A stretch of 64,000 nucleotides of DNA from a virus (Duplodnaviria; Caudoviricetes). The stretch lies in the IMG/VR virus record IMGVR_UViG_2933320104_000001, positions 2,782 through 66,781 of that record; one strand, 5' to 3'. Shown one piece after another: positions 2,365-47,148 of this stretch (within the stretch, counting starts at the first letter, position 1; every line of letters begins with the position of its first letter). Position numbers and translations under genes: made by a program. A model generated the notes under the pieces. The model worked only from the letters and a program-made list of their open reading frames with translations. It did not search any database and had not been told where the DNA came from.

Positions 2365-3158
2365 TGGGCTTCACTCGTGCGCAGGTTGACCAGCTCTTGC
2401 AGCCGATCAACACCAACCGCGTCTTGAAGGACGGCAAGGGCCACTCACATGTGTCCCAACAGGACGTCCTCGCGCACCTGATCCGCATCTTCGGGTTCGG
2501 CAACTTCGATACCGAGATCCTCAGCCTGGAGTGCGTCTTCGAGACGCCCCGCGTCAATGACCAGACGGGCAAGCAGACCGGTCGGTGGGACGTCTGCTAC
2601 AAGGCCACCTACCGGTTGATCGTCAAGGACGAGAACGGCGTCGAGGTCTGCCACTTCGAGGACGGTTCGACTGCCACCGCGCAGAACCAGACCCGCGGCG
2701 ATGCTCACGACCTGGCGATGAAGTCGGCCCTGTCGTTAGCAAAGAAGCGGGCCGCGATCCCGCTCGGCGACCAGTTCGGCCTGTCGCTCTACAACAAGGG
2801 GCAGACCAAGCCGCTGGTCATAGGCACGCTCGTGATGCCTGAGGGTGAGGCCGCCGGACACGACGTGCAGGAGGGCGTCGAGAAGCAGGTTTCGCTCGGC
2901 AACGACGAGATTGACCGCGACCTGGACGCTTCGTTGGCAGAGCCCGCGCAGCCCACGCCGCAGGTGAGCGTCGATGACGGCTGGGTGGATGCCTTCGGGA
3001 AGCGCGTGGCTGCTGCAACCGCCGACCAGATCGGCGGTCTGCGTCAGGAGGTGCTCGACAAGTTCAAGGCTCGCTCTCTCGACTCCGACACTGGCAACCG
3101 GCTGATGGAGGCCATCAAGCAGCGGCAGGCCGAGCTCAGCGGGCAGGAGGCGGCGTGA
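2364..3158 (+). CDS. Rad52/Rad22 (Sak)-family ssDNA-annealing recombinase
   Basis: SHVSQQDVLAHLIRIFGFGNF...AHDLAMKSALSLAKKRAAIPLGDQFGLSLY. Confidence 0.88.
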   Translation: MGFTRAQVDQLLQPINTNRVLKDGKGHSHVSQQDVLAHLIRIFGFGNFDTEILSLECVFETPRVNDQTGKQTGRWDVCYKATYRLIVKDENGVEVCHFEDGSTATAQNQTRGDAHDLAMKSALSLAKKRAAIPLGDQFGLSLYNKGQTKPLVIGTLVMPEGEAAGHDVQEGVEKQVSLGNDEIDRDLDASLAEPAQPTPQVSVDDGWVDAFGKRVAAATADQIGGLRQEVLDKFKARSLDSDTGNRLMEAIKQRQAELSGQEAA

Positions 3159-3748
3159 ACGCCAAGTCGCACGCCCTGAAGGTGGGCGCCGCCAAGGTGC
3201 TGGTGGACATCGTCACCGCCGGATACGAGCAGCTCCGCAAGGACGCCGAGAAGGAGTTCGCCGAGCTCCGCAAGGACGAGATCAAGGGCTTGGCGGTCAA
3301 GCTCCCCGACGGCACCGAACTCGGGTCGATCGCCATCTACGACGGGCCCCCGCACACGCAGGTCAATATGAAGACCGTTGCGGCGATCGTCGCCAACGAC
3401 GCGCCCGAAGAGTTCGTCGAGGAACTGTCGGACGACGCGCTGAAGGACGAGAACCTGCTGGCGTTCGTCCGTGACCAGCTCCCGCACCTGCTCGTCAAAC
3501 GGATCCGCCCCGACTACCTGAAGAAGCTGCTGAAGCGGATCGACGGCAACGGCTACCTGAAGGACGCCGCGGGCACCCGCATCAAGGTTGCGGACGTGAC
3601 CCGTGGAGAGCCGACTGGCAAGTTCGCGTTCACCGCCGGGCCGGGCGCCCAGGAGCTGGCGTGGAAGGCGTGGAGGTCCGGCGATCTGGAGCCCGTCCTG
3701 GGCGACCTGCTCCGCCCTGCCCTTGAGGCGGGTGACCCAGGTGAGTGA
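3155..3748 (+). CDS. Hypothetical phage protein
   Basis: 197-aa ORF coupled to Rad52 gene. Confidence 0.75.
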   Translation: MNAKSHALKVGAAKVLVDIVTAGYEQLRKDAEKEFAELRKDEIKGLAVKLPDGTELGSIAIYDGPPHTQVNMKTVAAIVANDAPEEFVEELSDDALKDENLLAFVRDQLPHLLVKRIRPDYLKKLLKRIDGNGYLKDAAGTRIKVADVTRGEPTGKFAFTAGPGAQELAWKAWRSGDLEPVLGDLLRPALEAGDPGE

Positions 3749-40348: not shown

Positions 40349-40822
40349 ATGCCCAAAGGTGGAGCTCGCGTGGTGTCTGGCCCTCCGCCGGACCCGAATG
40401 CGCTGCGGCGTGAACGGCCAGGAGATGCGGCGACGTGGACGACGCTCCCTGCGGAGGGGCGCCCAGGCGATCCGCCTGAGTGGCCGCTGCTGGAGGCAGA
40501 TGGCCGCGAGTGGGAGCTGTGGGCCGACCTGTGGACCAAACCGCAGGCGATCATGTGGGAGCGGTTGGGCCAGCTGTACGAGGTCGCCATGTGCGTGAGG
40601 ATGCTCGCGCGGGCTGAGCAGCCGAAGTCGTCGGTCGAACTCCAGAAGGTGGTTCGCCAGTATCTGGACTCGCTGGGGTTGTCGACGCAGGGCATGCTGC
40701 GGAACCGGTGGCGGATCGCCGCCAACGAGGTGGCGGAGAAGCGGACGGCGAAGACAGCACGCACGGCGTCGGCCAGGTCCATGCGTGACCGGTTGAAGGC
40801 CATCGATGGCGGGGGAGCGTAG
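40349..40822 (+). CDS. Terminase small subunit
   Basis: GP.PDPNALRR...P.WPL...W..LW..PQA..W...LGLS..G..R.RW.I. Confidence 0.85.
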   Translation: MPKGGARVVSGPPPDPNALRRERPGDAATWTTLPAEGRPGDPPEWPLLEADGREWELWADLWTKPQAIMWERLGQLYEVAMCVRMLARAEQPKSSVELQKVVRQYLDSLGLSTQGMLRNRWRIAANEVAEKRTAKTARTASARSMRDRLKAIDGGGA

Positions 40823-42446
40823 CCCGCGTCCGCTGCTCGTGGCGCCGGCGTGGATCGAGGCGCACTGTGTGATCCCGGATGGGTTCCGCCGCGGCGACCA
40901 ATTCGCCCTCTACGACTACCAGCTGCGGTACTTCGCCGCGTTCTACATGGTGCGCGGCGATGCGGTGTGGCAGCCGGAGGATCCGATTCTGGGTCCGGCG
41001 TTCGTCTACCGGCGTGGCCTGCTCGCCGGCCCGCAGAAGCTAGGCAAGGGACCTCATACTGCGGCGCACGTCTGCGTCGAGGGTGTCGGGCCTGCATTGT
41101 TCGCCGGCTGGGCTGGCCGCGACGACGGGTATTCGTGCTCCGATTTCGGCTGCGGCTGTGGCTGGGAGTACCCGTACGAGCGGGGCGAGCCGATGGGCAT
41201 GTCGTGGCCCACGCCGCTGATCCAGATCACCGCGGTGTCCGAGGAGCAGACGGACAACATCTATGGCGCGCTCCGGCCGATGATCGAGCTGGGGCCGCTG
41301 GCGGATCTGATCCCGAAGACGGGCGAGGAGTTCATCCGGCTCCCGAGCGGCGGACGGGTCGACACGGTGACGTCGTCGGCACAGTCCCGACTCGGCCAGC
41401 GGGTCACCTTCGTGCCGCAGGACGAGGTCGGGCTGTGGACGATATCCAACAAGATGACCAAGGTCGCCGACACCCAGTACCGCGGACTCGCGGGCATGGG
41501 CGGGCGGGCGTCGCTGACGACGAACGCCTGGGATCCGTCCGAGAATTCGGTGGCGCAACAGCAGTTCGAGTCGTCGGCGAAGGACATCTACCGGCAGTTC
41601 GTCCAGCCTCCTCCGCACCTGTCCTACCGGAACAAGGTCGAGCGTAGGAAGATCCACCGGGCTGTGTATGGCGAGGCTCTGAAGGAGAACGGCGGCCACG
41701 TCGACCTGGATTCGATCGAGGCCGAAGCAGCTGACCTGATCGAGCGTGATCCGGCGCAGGCTGAGCGGTTCTTCGGCAACAGGATCGTGTACGGCGCGGG
41801 CCATTTCATCGAGGCGGATGCGTGGGATCGACGGGCGCTTGCACGGGACGTGCCGGACGGCTCGGTTATCGTGCTCGGCATGGACGGGTCGGACTCCGAC
41901 GACTGGACCGGGATCCGCGGAGAGACGGCGGACGGCCACCAGTTCACTCCGACGTTCGGCCCTGATCGCCGGCCGACTGTGTGGGACCCGGCAGCCTATG
42001 GCGGCCAGGTGCCGCGCCTCGAGGTGGCTGCGGCGTTCGATGAGTTGATGACCCGCTTCAAGGTTGTGCGCGCCTACATCGACCCGCCCTGGTGGGCGTC
42101 GGAGATCGACGCGTGGGCGGAGCGGTACGGCGACAGAGTGGTCATCCGCTGGTCGACGTTCCGGCCGGTGCAGATGCACGCTGCCTGCGAGCGGCTGCAC
42201 GTGGACGTGGGCAAAGCCGATTCACCGTTCACCCAGGACGGATGCCCCTTCACTGCGATCCACATCCGGAACACCCGGAAGGCTCCAAGGCCCGGCCAGC
42301 GGTACGTGCTGGCGAAGGCCAGCCATACCCAGAAGATCGACCTCACGGTCTGTTCTGTCTTGGCACATGAGGCTGCGGGCGACGCCCAGGCCGCCGGTTT
42401 GTTCCGCGTCCGTACTGCTCCCGCCAAGGTGATCATCATGAGATGA
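40806..42446 (+). CDS. Terminase large subunit
   Basis: GPQKLGKG Walker A; QDE Walker B; LGMDGSDSDD nuclease; KID. Confidence 0.92.
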   Translation: MAGERSPRPLLVAPAWIEAHCVIPDGFRRGDQFALYDYQLRYFAAFYMVRGDAVWQPEDPILGPAFVYRRGLLAGPQKLGKGPHTAAHVCVEGVGPALFAGWAGRDDGYSCSDFGCGCGWEYPYERGEPMGMSWPTPLIQITAVSEEQTDNIYGALRPMIELGPLADLIPKTGEEFIRLPSGGRVDTVTSSAQSRLGQRVTFVPQDEVGLWTISNKMTKVADTQYRGLAGMGGRASLTTNAWDPSENSVAQQQFESSAKDIYRQFVQPPPHLSYRNKVERRKIHRAVYGEALKENGGHVDLDSIEAEAADLIERDPAQAERFFGNRIVYGAGHFIEADAWDRRALARDVPDGSVIVLGMDGSDSDDWTGIRGETADGHQFTPTFGPDRRPTVWDPAAYGGQVPRLEVAAAFDELMTRFKVVRAYIDPPWWASEIDAWAERYGDRVVIRWSTFRPVQMHAACERLHVDVGKADSPFTQDGCPFTAIHIRNTRKAPRPGQRYVLAKASHTQKIDLTVCSVLAHEAAGDAQAAGLFRVRTAPAKVIIMR

Positions 42447-42453
42447 GGTGAGC

Positions 42454-43905
42454 ATGGCCCGCTCGGAGATGGAGTGGCTGAAGCACCTCGTCAAGTGCCA
42501 TGACAAGGAGCTGAAGGAGCTCCGCAGGCTGGATGAGTACTACGAGGGCGAGCAGGCCCTGTCGTACATGGCGCCGGAGCTGATCCAGGAGCTGGATGAG
42601 CGTGTCCGGCAGGTCGTCATCGAGTGGCCGCGTCTGGTCGTGGACTCCGTGGAGGAGCGCCTCGACGTCGAGGGGTTCCGGTTCGGTAAGCAGGCCGACG
42701 CGGATGCCGGGTTGTGGCGGATCTGGCAGGCCAACGACCTGGACGAGCAGTCGCAGCAGGCGCACGTGGACGCGCTGGTGATGAAGCGCAGCTATGTGAT
42801 CGTCGGCGCGAACGAGGACGACGCTGAGACGCCGATCATCACGGTGGAGTCGCCGCTCGAGGTGCACGCCGAGTATGACCCGCGTACGCGTGCGGTTGCT
42901 GCGGCGGTGAAGCGGTGGGTGGAGGAGGACGACGATCGCAAGATCGATCACGCCACCCTCTATCTGCCGAGCTCGACTGTCTGGTTCGTGAAGGACGAGA
43001 AGAGCAACTGGGTCGAGGACCCGGACAACCCTCGCGACGATCACGGCCTGGGACAGGTGTGCGTTGTCCCGATCGTGAACCGGCCTCGGTTGAAGCGGCC
43101 TGGTGGTGTGTCGGAGCTCAAGCCGGTGATCCCGATCTCGGATGCCGCCTGCAAGATCGCCACGGACATGATGATCTCGGCCGAGTTCCACGCCATCCCG
43201 CGCCGGTACGCGATCGGCGTCGGGCCGGAGGACTTCGAGGACGAGCAAGGCCGCCCCGTCTCGGCGTTGAAGCGGATCGCGGGCCGGATCTGGGCGATCG
43301 CCAAGAACAAGAAAGATGACGGGGTCGAGCTCGGCCAGTTCCCCGAGGCGTCGCTGAACAACTTCCACGAGACGCTGCGGCTGCTGGCGATGATGGTCGC
43401 CTCGCTTGCGGGTCTGCCGTCCAGGTTCCTCGGCCACGCCACCGACAACCCTGCCTCCGCTGACGCGATCCGCTCCGACGAGTCCCGGCTGGTCAAGCGC
43501 GCCGAACGCAAGCAGCGCGCTTGGGGCGGCTCCTGGGAGAAGGTCATGCGCCTGGCGTTGCTGATCCGCGACGGTGAGGTGCCGGATGACGCCAGGAGTC
43601 TGGAGACGCTGTGGCGCGACGCTTCTACCCCGACCGTTGCGCAGAAGGCGGACGCGGCGATGAAGCTGTACACCAGCAAGATCGTGCCGTTGCGGCAGAC
43701 GCGTGAGGACCTCGGTTACACCCAGGCGCAGATTGACCGCATGCAGGAAGAGGACACCAAAGCTGCCGAGTCGGCGTTCGAGCGGGTTATGGCGGGCGAT
43801 CTGGCCGCGTTGACTGGCCCGAAGCCGCCTCCTGAGCCTGTCGGACCACAGCCTCCCGACCTCCAGCCGGCAGGGGTGAACGGTGGCGCTGCAGCAGGTG
43901 GCTGA
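42454..43905 (+). CDS. Portal protein (SPP1 gp6-like)
   Basis: YYEGEQ; WPRLVVD..EERL; WQAN.LD; NPASADAI. Confidence 0.93.
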   Translation: MARSEMEWLKHLVKCHDKELKELRRLDEYYEGEQALSYMAPELIQELDERVRQVVIEWPRLVVDSVEERLDVEGFRFGKQADADAGLWRIWQANDLDEQSQQAHVDALVMKRSYVIVGANEDDAETPIITVESPLEVHAEYDPRTRAVAAAVKRWVEEDDDRKIDHATLYLPSSTVWFVKDEKSNWVEDPDNPRDDHGLGQVCVVPIVNRPRLKRPGGVSELKPVIPISDAACKIATDMMISAEFHAIPRRYAIGVGPEDFEDEQGRPVSALKRIAGRIWAIAKNKKDDGVELGQFPEASLNNFHETLRLLAMMVASLAGLPSRFLGHATDNPASADAIRSDESRLVKRAERKQRAWGGSWEKVMRLALLIRDGEVPDDARSLETLWRDASTPTVAQKADAAMKLYTSKIVPLRQTREDLGYTQAQIDRMQEEDTKAAESAFERVMAGDLAALTGPKPPPEPVGPQPPDLQPAGVNGGAAAGG

Positions 43906-44797
43906 CGCCCACTACGTGGCCCAGCAGCAGATCGTTCGCGCTACCGCCGAGCAGGCGCAGAGCTTGTGGGGCGAGTTGGCGGCGGCCAGTGTGATCAAGC
44001 AGTGGATGGATCTGCTCGCTCAGATCGTGGACCTGCTGACCGGCGGCCAATTGAGGGCGGCGCGGCTGGCCATGCCGTACCTGCGGCTGGTCGCGAAGGA
44101 GCAGGGCGCCAGCGGGCCGTTGCGGGCGCAGGTCGACCCGTTCGGGTTCGCGGGACGCGGAGCAGATGGCCGGGACCTGGCGACGCTCTTGATGCAGCCC
44201 GCACTCCGTACGGCAGGCCTGGTGGCACGCGGCGCCGACGATCAGGAGGCGCTGCGCTCCGGTCTGGCGTCGCTGACCCGGATCATCGCTACCGAGATCC
44301 CTGACGCTGGCCGCGCCGCGGTCGGCGCCGGGATCACCGCGAACCGGCGGTTCACCACCTACATCCGTATGATGCGGCTGCCCTCGTGTAGCCGGTGCAT
44401 CGTCCTGGCGGGCAAGACCTACCCCTGGTCGGAGGGCTTCGCCCGGCACGACCGCTGCGACTGCTACCACCTTGCGGTCGTCCACGACGGGACGGGCGAT
44501 CTGCCGGGCGAGACGCCGCAGCAGGTGTTTCGTGGGCTGACCCGAGAGCAGCAGGACGCGGCATTCGGCATGGCCGCGGCCGAGGCTATCCGTGCCGGCG
44601 CGGACATCGGCCGGGTGGTGAATGCCCGCCGTGGTGTCTACGTCGCGGGGGAGCGCGAGTTCACCCGGACCGGCATCCGCGGGCGCAAACGCAGCCCACG
44701 TGAGGCCAGGCCGACGTCGGAGCAGATCATCCGAGACAACGCCGATGACCGGGCTGCCGCGATCGAGCAGCTCAGACGGCACGGATACATCCTCTGA
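43883..44797 (+). CDS. Minor head (MuF/VG15-like) protein
   Basis: CSRCIVLAG...F.RH.RCDC; located after portal. Confidence 0.8.
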   Translation: MALQQVADAHYVAQQQIVRATAEQAQSLWGELAAASVIKQWMDLLAQIVDLLTGGQLRAARLAMPYLRLVAKEQGASGPLRAQVDPFGFAGRGADGRDLATLLMQPALRTAGLVARGADDQEALRSGLASLTRIIATEIPDAGRAAVGAGITANRRFTTYIRMMRLPSCSRCIVLAGKTYPWSEGFARHDRCDCYHLAVVHDGTGDLPGETPQQVFRGLTREQQDAAFGMAAAEAIRAGADIGRVVNARRGVYVAGEREFTRTGIRGRKRSPREARPTSEQIIRDNADDRAAAIEQLRRHGYIL

Positions 44798-44878
44798 AGC
44801 TTCCTCGCGCACAGACGCGAGGATCCCGGGGTGCGCATTCCCGCGTGCCCTCAAATCACGATGAGAGGGCATGCCGCG

Positions 44879-45631
44879 ATGGCACCCACCCCGATGGACG
44901 CGACGTCCACCATGTACAACCCGTGGTTCGACCTGCAGCGGCACGACGAGGACGCGACGTCCGAGCAGAGCAGCGACACCGACGCCACGGAAACCGACGA
45001 CGCCGACACCGCCGATGAGGCCGATACCGAAGTGGACGCGAAGTCCGACGACGGCCTCGGCGAAGCGGGCAAGAAGGCGCTCGCCGAAACCCGGGCCGAA
45101 CGCAACCGGGCCAAGAAGGAAGCATCCGACCTGAAGAAGGCCCTGGCTGACCAGCGAAAGCAGGCAGCTGAGCAGGCGAAAAGGCTGGCCGAGTTCGAGG
45201 ACAAGGACAAGTCCGAGACCGAGAAGCTCACCCAGCGCGCCGATCAGGCCGACAAGCGCGCCGAAGCGGCAGAGGCCCGCGTCCAGGCCGCTCTTGCTCG
45301 AGCAGTGCAGGCCGAAGTTAAGGCGATGGCCGCCGGCCAGTTCGCCGACCCCGAGGACGCACACGCCTTCCTCAAGCTCGCCGACTACGCGGGCGAGGAC
45401 GGCGAGGTTGACGTCGAGTCGATCAAAGCCGACCTGGAGGCGCTGCTCGAGCGCAAGCCGCACCTGCGCAAGTCGGCGCCGGTGACGGAGGAGCAGGCCA
45501 AGAAGCCCAAACCCAAGCCTGACCCATCGCAGGGATCCCGCAAGGAGCCCGGGCCGCTCGACTTCCGCACCGCCGACAAGGCCACCCTGGACGCCGAGCT
45601 GCAGAAGCTGGGCGTACGGCCCCGCTGGTGA
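44879..45631 (+). CDS. Capsid scaffolding protein
   Basis: Acidic N-terminus; LGEAGKKAL; coiled coil; LLERKPHL; PDPSQG. Confidence 0.88.
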   Translation: MAPTPMDATSTMYNPWFDLQRHDEDATSEQSSDTDATETDDADTADEADTEVDAKSDDGLGEAGKKALAETRAERNRAKKEASDLKKALADQRKQAAEQAKRLAEFEDKDKSETEKLTQRADQADKRAEAAEARVQAALARAVQAEVKAMAAGQFADPEDAHAFLKLADYAGEDGEVDVESIKADLEALLERKPHLRKSAPVTEEQAKKPKPKPDPSQGSRKEPGPLDFRTADKATLDAELQKLGVRPRW

Positions 45632-45816
45632 TCCGCATCCGCGCCCGGCTGGGCGACGGACATACCTCCATCGAGGTCGACGGACACGAGGGCCACGTCT
45701 TGGACGGCCGCGTGTGCGCTGCCGTGTCGGCTATCGCCCAAACCGCTCTGCTCGGCCTCGAACAGGTGGCCGCGCAGCATCCGGACCTCGTGTCCATCGA
45801 AATCACACAGGAGTAA
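45628..45816 (+). CDS. prp: Mini Prp-like cysteine protease (DUF464 family)
   Basis: IEVDGH......VCAAVSAI carrying the His/Cys pair; QTALLGLEQVAAQHPDLVSI tail. Confidence 0.8.
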   Translation: MIRIRARLGDGHTSIEVDGHEGHVLDGRVCAAVSAIAQTALLGLEQVAAQHPDLVSIEITQE

Positions 45817-45819
45817 TCC

Positions 45820-47148
45820 ATGACCACGCAGACCGCCCGCCCGCGGGCCTGGTTCGACCTCGGCCGCCATGACGTGCGGTCACACGTGCCCGCCGGAATC
45901 ATGGCGATGCTGCAGAACGGCCTGCTCGACAGGGTGTTCCGCGAGGCGCTGATCCCCGAGTTCCTGTTCCCGATGATCGCTGACGTCGAGCCGTGGATGG
46001 CCAACGTCGGCGACACCAAGACCTTCACCCGCAAGGGCCTGCTCGCTCCCGCGACCACTGCGATCACCGGCTCGGACGTGTCCGCCGCGACGTACGGCAT
46101 CGAGCAGTGGTCCGTCACCATGGACCAGTTCGGCAACTCCGTCGACACGAACATGCTGTACTCGGCGATGGCGCTGGCCAGCAAGTACGTGGCCGACGTG
46201 CAGACGCTCGGCGTCAATGCTGGCCAGTCGATCAACCAGGTCTCCCGCAACAAGCTGTACAAGGCGTACGCGGGTGGCCGCACCTGGGCCACGGCTGCGG
46301 CAGGGTCGGACACGAGCATCGTGGTGCAGTCCACGGACGGCTTCGAGACGGTGCTGGTCAACGGCGTCCCCACCCCCGTTTCTGGCGCCAACCCGCTGAC
46401 CGTGACGATTGGCGCGGCCGGTTCCGGCACCGGCACCACCAACACGGTGACCGGCGTCAACACCTCCACCAAGACCCTGACGCTCGGCACCGCCCGAGCC
46501 GATGTCGTGGGCGACTGGGTGGTCGCGGCGAACGCGCCGTTCAGCGTCCGGCCGAACGCCAAGATGTCGGCGTTCGACCTGGCCGCCTCCAACGACGGCG
46601 CCACGTTCAAGCTCTTCCGCGCCGCGGTCGCAAGGTTGCGCAAGATGAACGTGCCGACCCTGAGCGGCTACTACGTCGCCCACATCGACCCGGACACCGA
46701 GGCGCAGCTGTTCGACGACAGCGACTTCAAGCAGGCGCTGCAGGGCCGAGTCGACTCGCCGATCTTCCGCGACCTGTCGATCGGACGGTTCGGCGGCATC
46801 GACTGGGTCCGCAACAACGAGACGCCGACCCTGCTGGGCGGCTCTGCGGGCACGCTGAACGTGCACCGGCCCATCGTGATCGGCGGCAACGCCCTGGTGG
46901 CGGCCCCGTTCGAGAACATGGGTTCCCTCATCGCAGGGACCGGCGTCGAGGACGTGCCCGAGATCTCCATGATCAACGCTGCGGCGGGTGTAGACGTCGC
47001 CCTGATCGTCCGGCCGCCGCAGGACCGCCTCCAGCAGGTTCTGGCCACCTCGTGGAGCTGGGTCGGCGACTACGGCGTCCCGTCCGACAGCCTCACCGGA
47101 GACGCCGCCCTGTTCAAGCGCGGCGTCATCGTCGAGCACGTCGCCTGA
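45820..47148 (+). CDS. Major capsid protein with inserted beta domain
   Basis: AGGAG RBS; 442 aa; GDT.TFTRKG; YYVAHIDP; IVRPPQDRLQQ; position. Confidence 0.88.
   Translation: MTTQTARPRAWFDLGRHDVRSHVPAGIMAMLQNGLLDRVFREALIPEFLFPMIADVEPWMANVGDTKTFTRKGLLAPATTAITGSDVSAATYGIEQWSVTMDQFGNSVDTNMLYSAMALASKYVADVQTLGVNAGQSINQVSRNKLYKAYAGGRTWATAAAGSDTSIVVQSTDGFETVLVNGVPTPVSGANPLTVTIGAAGSGTGTTNTVTGVNTSTKTLTLGTARADVVGDWVVAANAPFSVRPNAKMSAFDLAASNDGATFKLFRAAVARLRKMNVPTLSGYYVAHIDPDTEAQLFDDSDFKQALQGRVDSPIFRDLSIGRFGGIDWVRNNETPTLLGGSAGTLNVHRPIVIGGNALVAAPFENMGSLIAGTGVEDVPEISMINAAAGVDVALIVRPPQDRLQQVLATSWSWVGDYGVPSDSLTGDAALFKRGVIVEHVA

Follow-up and report, generated by a model that had tools for sequence, protein, structure and literature searches.

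Among the closest described counterparts of the system presented here is the Staphylococcus aureus protease Prp (MEROPS family C108), a protein of about 105 amino acids that is essential for the ribosome and encoded in the host genome between rplU and rpmA, together with phage 80alpha, in which one short N-terminal motif is common to the scaffold and the capsid protein. The known Prp sites are KFNLQFF'A in the 80alpha scaffold, KLNLQHF'A in the 80alpha capsid, KLNLQFF'A in S. aureus L27 and LDLQFF'A in Bacillus subtilis L27 (PMC9405229; an apostrophe marks a known or predicted cut), and the two 80alpha sites have hydrophobic residues at P6 and P4 and an aromatic residue at P1 (PMC9405229, PMC5744158). 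The same features are found in the DNA analysed here, a tailed-phage stretch of 64,000 nucleotides (positions 2,782 to 66,781 of IMG/VR record IMGVR_UViG_2933320104_000001), referred to below as the window, where a 62-amino-acid candidate Prp-family cysteine protease, hereafter mini-Prp (45628..45816, plus strand), is encoded between scaffold and capsid genes whose products begin with a shared tag. From sequence comparisons we infer that the phage's own mini-Prp is probably a catalytically active enzyme that cuts both tags after a His residue.

The window belongs to contig 1 of an actinobacterial genome of 10.78 Mb, and the region of interest is a prophage module for head assembly. The original prediction had pointed to the motifs NPWFDLQRHD (W at 44924) and RAWFDLGRHD (W at 45850) at the N-termini of the two head proteins, and both are where it had put them: the scaffold frame reads ...MYNPWFDLQRHDEDA, containing PWFDLQRHD, the capsid open reading frame (ORF; 45820-47148) reads MTTQTARPRAWFDLGRHDVRS, containing AWFDLGRHD, and a six-frame scan of the window with W[FYL].[LIVM].R[HF] gives plus-strand matches at 44924-44944 and 45850-45870. 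Two further matches, on the minus strand (34343, 25946), have no D...D context, and composition predicts about 0.2 matches. The scaffold tag WFDLQRHD lies at 44924..44947 on the plus strand, with a predicted cut between His (44942-44944) and Asp (44945-44947), and the capsid tag WFDLGRHD at 45850..45873 on the same strand, with a predicted cut between His17 (45868-45870) and Asp18 (45871-45873). The window sequence FDLQRH'D is in register with the L27 and 80alpha Prp sites, and reads Arg-His-Asp at P2-P1-P1' where the S. aureus/80alpha system has Phe-Phe-Ala; window-type tags thus fall outside the canonical tag, which is defined here by Phe or Leu at P1, a hydrophobic P2 and a small P1'.

Mini-Prp is the product of the sole gene between the scaffold and capsid genes, and it contains ...DGHEGHVLDGRVCAAVS..., with Gly19-His20 at 45682-45687 and Cys30 at 45715-45717. 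The prediction that this is a Prp-like His/Cys protein is upheld by a hidden Markov model search of 45628-45816, which gives Pfam Peptidase_Prp (PF04327) at 30.4 bits, above the gathering score of 27, with profile positions 1-57 out of 90 covered; phrog_4478 'peptidase' is matched as well, and PF04327 is matched by 22 of 22 diverse mini forms. In the alignments A1, A2 and A5, of which A2 holds the broad mini forms and has a mean column identity of 38%, His20 and Cys30 never vary. Gly19 does not vary in A1 or A5 either, and in A2, where one row has Asp, its conservation is at least 90%; Ser34 is without exception only in A5, some rows of A1 and A2 having Thr. These four residues correspond to Gly21, His22, Cys34 and Ser38 of S. 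aureus Prp (SaPrp), with roles as given in PMC9405229. By profile and residues, mini-Prp is a member of the Prp family in which the His/Cys dyad is kept. It is also a real gene under purifying selection, its median dN/dS being 0.247 (599 pairs from 83 unique genes) vs 1.77 in the frame shifted by one base. Relatives make up at least 479 clusters at 90% identity in a search of 5.8 billion proteins, and the 120 that were listed have 61-65 amino acids, belong for the most part to Streptomyces, Nonomuraea and related genera, and in many cases carry the source name 'ribosomal-processing cysteine protease Prp'.

The family and the dyad of the original prediction thus stand; what it had missed is that the protein is an internally deleted form of 62 amino acids. 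A search of 1.84 billion representative proteins with a profile of the mini forms returns 591 proteins, both short (58-77 amino acids) and canonical (about 100-115), and the canonical Prps align to the mini profile as two separate stretches. The joint alignment of mini and canonical Prps has a single internal gap of about 45 columns, seen in the alignment to 2g0i too, across which the Cys-bearing first helix is continued directly by the final part of the second helix and then by the last strand. Mini-Prp retains strands 1-2, the Gly-His pair, the Cys at the helix start, the Ser four residues on and the last strand. Canonical Prps have two mutually similar helices (..QTALLGLrqVA.. and ..ILETvlLGLqdIA..), so mini-Prp could plausibly have originated by a deletion between these.

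The tags were followed through a set of 121 loci, made up of 39 actinobacterial genome loci, 80 viral contigs with a gene of 62-65 amino acids, Streptomyces phage Kromp and the window; these loci are kin, and counts over them overstate their independence. With the pattern [FWYL].[LIVMA].R[HF], and with at least 900 bases upstream required for the scaffold test, a scaffold tag is present in 112 of 113 testable loci and a capsid tag in all 117 that are testable, so the motif accompanies the protease as had been foreseen. Eight loci have too little upstream DNA for the scaffold test, the tag being visible in one of these even so. The pattern W.?F.[LIVMA].R[HF] fits 112 of the 113 scaffold tags and 117 of the 119 capsid tags detected, and has 0 matches in 677,739 residues translated from the reverse strand of the related loci. 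The sole testable locus in which no scaffold tag was seen (L113) has frames around its mini-Prp that look disrupted, and could be a copy in decay or the product of faulty assembly.

Composition was counted on 95 unique scaffold/capsid tag pairs, in which P7 is Trp in 82 scaffold and 86 capsid tags, P6 is Phe in 95 and 94, and P4 is Leu in 91 and 90, respectively. Arg stands at P2 in every detected tag, but the search pattern demands it there. The P1 residue is His in 87 scaffold tags and Phe in the other 8, and His in all 95 capsid tags, while P1' is Asp in 84 and Ala in 2 of the scaffold tags and Asp in 72, Ala in 20, Asn in 2 and Gly in 1 of the capsid tags. No column of mini-Prp distinguishes the loci with Phe at scaffold P1 from those with His. 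The scaffold and capsid sequences are alike only up to the His, and beyond P1' they read D-P-E-P and V-R-S-T. In the SaPrp-inhibitor structure P4 and P6 lie at the dimer interface and P1 is stacked on the catalytic His (PMC9405229), contacts that the near-invariance of P6 Phe and P4 Leu and the aromatic His or Phe at P1 would fit. Among the unique pairs, 8 have an extra residue between Trp and Phe in both tags, 5 have it in the scaffold tag only and 1 has it in the capsid tag only; the loci being kin, the paired insertion is suggestive only. Three capsids (L004, L048 and L051, with a mini-Prp match at 3001-3186 just upstream) carry tandem tags, WFRLDRHD and WFDLGRHD separated by 17-20 residues, and look as if the tag had been duplicated.

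Phages that have the capsid family and lack the gene serve as a negative control. Elsewhere among phage records the family is confined to two Komagataeibacter phages and three named Ralstonia phages, the latter with four records; identity is 30-32%, and the alignment sets in at query residue 21. In Ralstonia phage Raharianne and Komagataeibacter phage phiKX1 the scaffold and capsid genes stand side by side, with no gene between them and no tag, and the capsids start MPISNFPAALQP.. and MAIANFPASLQP.., respectively. Ser4 of the Raharianne capsid is aligned ungapped with Ser21 of the window capsid, so its Met1 corresponds to Asp18 of the window, the residue after the tag His. At its start the Raharianne scaffold has MADPDPNPNP, similar in kind to what follows the predicted cut in the Kromp scaffold (RH'DDPDPADP). 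Because conservation ends at the His, P1 is His or Phe and the Prp-less capsids begin at the next residue, the cut would lie between H and D, with the scissile bond placed within about one residue, in agreement with the expectation of a cut near H/D.

More distant relatives connect the window tag with the canonical Prp site. A scan of viral contigs based on four non-actinobacterial mini-Prps picked out 413 stretches encoding relatives, of which 80 were kept, and the 29 of these with a GC content below 0.62 were compared; scans from the single non-actinobacterial mini-Prps P0132 and P0172 gave no related loci. Canonical Prps of 85-111 amino acids are encoded at 20 of the 29 loci, the next large gene starting ..LQLF'(A/N/T) in 14 and having no tag found in 6. 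The other nine encode mini-Prps of 62-77 amino acids, and in seven of them a Gly-rich scaffold comes next, with ..QRF'(N/S) in five, ..QMF'N in one and ..QLF'T in one; the remaining two have another context, and no tag was found. In four of these mini-Prp phages the capsid has the same P2-P1 residues as the scaffold, and Arg at P2 occurs beside mini-Prps only among the loci compared. The series LQ(F/L)F'A, LQRF'N and LxR(F/H)'D ties the window tag to the canonical site, and on this alignment of motifs the window tag is a diverged L27/80alpha site. The original prediction of a private, altered tag is therefore right as to the alteration (Arg-His'Asp) and too strong as to privacy. The same series argues that the enzyme and its sites evolve together.

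Some other arrangements were seen among these loci. In mid-GC mini-Prp phages (L143-L148) the order is MuF-like gene, mini-Prp, scaffold and capsid, where the actinobacterial group has mini-Prp between scaffold and capsid, and at L150 and L151 (GC 0.36-0.37) mini-Prps of 62-66 amino acids lie between an ORF of 531-544 amino acids and one of 167, with no adjoining scaffold. In fused forms (L133; L159/L161; L181/L183) the Prp domain is N-terminal in a protein of 336-408 amino acids, and the next large gene starts ..IQLF'A or ..DLQLF'A, the latter accompanying four fused forms of 403-408 amino acids. Two records filed as phage, L131 (OR846610) and L134 (MT836103), have a bacterial L21-Prp-L27 operon at the match and represent host DNA or a mis-assigned contig.

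The host itself has a short L27, which starts MAHKKG and whose gene follows that of L21 immediately, without an intervening Prp, and the sole Prp match in its genome is the window mini-Prp. Escherichia coli, according to the articles consulted, has no Prp. An even sample of 400 other genomes of the phylum yielded neither a Prp-like gene nor the window's capsid family, which agrees with the premise that Actinobacteria are not known to use a Prp/L27 system, and within the genus the gene and the capsid family occur in the same 7 of 110 genomes, adjacent to each other. Because the equivalog score fails, the host L27 is short and the gene sits between scaffold and capsid, the ribosomal-processing name is unearned, and its use on hundreds of actinobacterial proteins is a systematic mis-annotation of a prophage head gene.

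Taken as a mechanism, mini-Prp, probably dimeric like other Prps, would bind the N-terminal W-F-x-L-x-R-H of the scaffold and capsid proteins and cut after the His, taking 17 residues off the capsid protein and about 23 off the scaffold if this starts at 44879. The tag would be the L27/80alpha site with P6 Phe and P4 Leu retained, P2-P1 changed from Phe-Phe to Arg-His and P1' from Ala to Asp, and since the host has neither a Prp nor a long L27, the phage would supply both the enzyme and the sites. Catalysis, the dimer, the exact scissile bond and a role of cleavage in assembly are all what we infer by analogy and comparison. There is about an even chance that a more detailed account is right, by which mini-Prp would be an active, self-sufficient dimeric endopeptidase whose specificity has shifted from (Phe/Leu)-Phe'Ala to Arg-His'Asp on W-F-x-L-x-R-H, and which would form a separate phage lineage that arose by internal deletion and co-evolved with its two substrates via LQRF'N to LxRH'D. 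To our knowledge, an active endopeptidase of 62 residues would, if true, be among the smallest known.

A number of observations weigh against cleavage by mini-Prp, besides the kinship of the loci. About half of the canonical fold is absent, so that mini-Prp, with 62 amino acids and some 45 internal residues gone, does not have the size and fold order of a canonical Prp (fold order as in PMC9261936), and the lost part includes the strand whose Gly bonds the active-site loop in Thermotoga maritima Prp (PMC9405229). Asp31 of SaPrp, three residues before the Cys, is loop-stabilising, and D31A is inactive (PMC9405229); its equivalent is out of register in actinobacterial mini forms, which have DGRVC, two residues shorter than GxDIVC. 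Asp26, at least 90% conserved in the actinobacterial mini forms, may substitute for it, and other mini forms retain GxDI(V/I)C. The NCBIfam Prp equivalogs NF011128 and NF011133 give mini-Prp 21.9 and 20.1 bits, far under their cut-offs of 136 and 171. The AlphaFold monomer (pLDDT 75) has two strands and one long helix, with the last strand unformed, and Foldseek with this model against the PDB returned nothing at E <= 0.001, a search that is uninformative for a 62-residue model at pLDDT 75. In VIA-align against 48,161 chains Prp crystal structures take ranks 1, 2, 3 and 5 (2g0i_A, Z 4.8, rmsd 2.1 over 57 residues; 2idl_B, 4.8; 1s12_A, 4.3; 4peo_A, 4.1), all at Z scores of 4.1-4.8 that are under the tool's own caution level. 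Finally, known Prp substrates have small P1'-P2' residues (PMC9405229), with which Asp at P1' conflicts.

The loss of about 45 fold residues and the altered loop around the Asp31 equivalent would also suit a mini-Prp devoid of catalysis, acting as a tag-binding chaperone or assembly factor that holds the scaffold and capsid N-termini up to the time of assembly, with the tags kept or otherwise removed. S. aureus Prp is itself suspected of a chaperone role (PMC9405229), the inactive C34S Prp remains bound to L27 (10.1101/2025.08.01.668195), and in 80alpha cleavage is dispensable and it is the N-terminal sequence of the scaffold that is required (PMC5744158), so the main role of the tag could be binding and not removal. 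Such a non-catalytic protein is a serious alternative but an unlikely one, as the His20 and Cys30 of the mini forms are invariant, Gly19 is nearly so and residue 34 is Ser or Thr at a mean identity of 38%, and an invariant dyad at that level of divergence is hard to explain without catalysis; tag conservation, moreover, stops sharply at P1, and the Prp-less homologues begin at P1'.

Cutting of the tags by another protease, with mini-Prp in an unrelated role, is quite improbable. The candidates are a host enzyme or the 304-amino-acid VG15-family/MuF-like minor head protein (43883..44797, plus strand; Pfam VG15 at 32.7 bits against a cut-off of 26), which matches phrog_1522 'head maturation protease' (E 1.1e-57) and whose counterpart in Kromp, gp4, is annotated 'capsid maturation protease'. 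Raharianne and phiKX1, which have neither Prp nor tag, are also without a VG15/MuF-like gene, and the control cannot therefore separate the two candidate proteases. The 304-amino-acid protein, however, matches no protease family in Pfam and has no relative among solved structures, the register of the tag is that of the Prp site established by experiment, the tag varies in step with the type of the neighbouring Prp, and a MuF-like protein is present in 80alpha and in Enterococcus phage phiFL3A, although in 80alpha the demonstrated cutter is Prp (PMC5744158). GC-rich DNA yields many long spurious ORFs and the mini-Prp ORF is short, so it may be asked whether the ORF is spurious and the shared motif a coincidence or a DNA-level translation or regulatory signal. 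That explanation has hardly any probability left and was rejected: about 0.2 motif matches are expected in the window, the dN/dS contrast between the true and the shifted frame, the Pfam match over its cut-off and the 479 or more protein clusters speak for a protein, and 95 unique tag pairs, with zero background matches, keep the motif as protein while its codons vary. Cleavage of both tags by the phage's mini-Prp remains the best explanation.

The head module has the gene order terminase, portal, VG15/MuF-like protein, scaffold, mini-Prp and major capsid protein, followed by head-tail adaptor genes; those given here with coordinates are all on the plus strand. It starts with an ORF of 546 amino acids (40806..42446) that has no significant Pfam match and for that reason is named terminase large subunit by synteny, being collinear with Kromp gp2 'terminase large subunit'; the portal protein (42448..43905) matches Pfam SPP1_portal at E 6e-54. 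The head scaffolding protein (44879..45631) matches phrog_4708 (E 1.3e-19) and is homologous to the Raharianne scaffold (E 6e-4). Its frame is open from a GTG at 44831, and its start is most likely the ATG at 44879, which is preceded by the ribosome-binding-like GAGAGGG. The GTG start of mini-Prp overlaps the scaffold stop (GTGA, 45628-45631), and the Kromp annotation has an identical 4-base overlap (gp5 end 5355, gp6 start 5352; L002); the overlap in the window suggests that the two genes may be translated in a coupled manner. The major capsid protein (45820..47148) matches phrog_1357 major head protein at E 5.7e-25 and is 55% identical to Kromp gp7 'major capsid protein'. A classical prohead protease was also considered and rejected, as no HK97-type S78, ClpP or S49 protease is present in the window; PF04586 matches nowhere in the genome, and the matches to PF00574 and PF01343 are on other contigs only.

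Some parts of this arrangement have been described or labelled before. An experimental precedent is Streptococcus phage Cp-1, which encodes a protease that trims the N-terminus of its major head protein and is placed in clan CR (PMC9405229) or family C108 (PMC12445089); it removes about 40-48 residues, and no shared scaffold tag is described in the parts of these two articles consulted. Enterococcus phage phiFL3A has a Prp in its head module, gp45 ('peptidase, domain DUF464'), together with a scaffold, gp47 (..LLLNLQFFAEK), and a major head protein, gp48 (..IKMNLQIFAAK). It differs from the window in that its Prp is a full-length protein of 103 amino acids encoded between portal and MuF-like genes, its tag is of the canonical L27 type, and its host lineage has a Prp/L27 system of its own. 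A further case is gp5-gp6-gp7 of Streptomyces phage Kromp (MH744420), with the same arrangement and family: gp6 has 62 amino acids, is 81% identical to mini-Prp and is annotated 'protease', and the tags are GWFQLTRHD in the scaffold and SWFRLDRHD in the capsid. Kromp is an isolated lytic or temperate phage and not a prophage, and tblastn over 50,697 phage records found a mini-Prp in Kromp alone. Database labels thus already exist in phiFL3A gp45, phrog_4478 and Kromp gp6 'protease', and a phage-encoded Prp next to tagged head proteins is common in viral contigs, which makes the arrangement itself less novel. In the literature searched, which included few subscription papers and no supplements, phiFL3A gp45 was found as an annotation only and no paper was found on the Kromp protease, nor was any description found of a 62-amino-acid, internally deleted Prp subfamily, of any Prp encoded by an actinobacterial phage, or of mini-Prp where the host is without both Prp and a long L27, of the WFxLxRH'D tag, or of a tag that shifts with the protease clade.

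The locus does not establish a new principle; it is a sharp and easily tested case that might find use as a protease-tag pair of very small size. The loci compared form a natural series of protease-tag pairs that differ at P2-P1, which could serve the study of specificity evolution or provide orthogonal cleavage tags, and cleavage by mini-Prp, if true, would give a naturally orthogonal protease-tag pair as well as a tractable model of a protease and its site shifting specificity jointly. It would also mean that the Prp-tag system is able to enter hosts without Prp and long L27. Compared with S. aureus Prp, the window protein is phage-encoded, has 62 amino acids with an internal deletion, and is found in a host that has no Prp and whose L27 is short, yet it belongs to the same family by profile and has the same His/Cys dyad. 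Phage 80alpha borrows the Prp of its host, and this locus and its approximately 120 relatives are the reverse, occurring in a phylum with no Prp among 400 sampled genomes: here the phage brings a stripped-down Prp together with a site for it on both the scaffold and the capsid.

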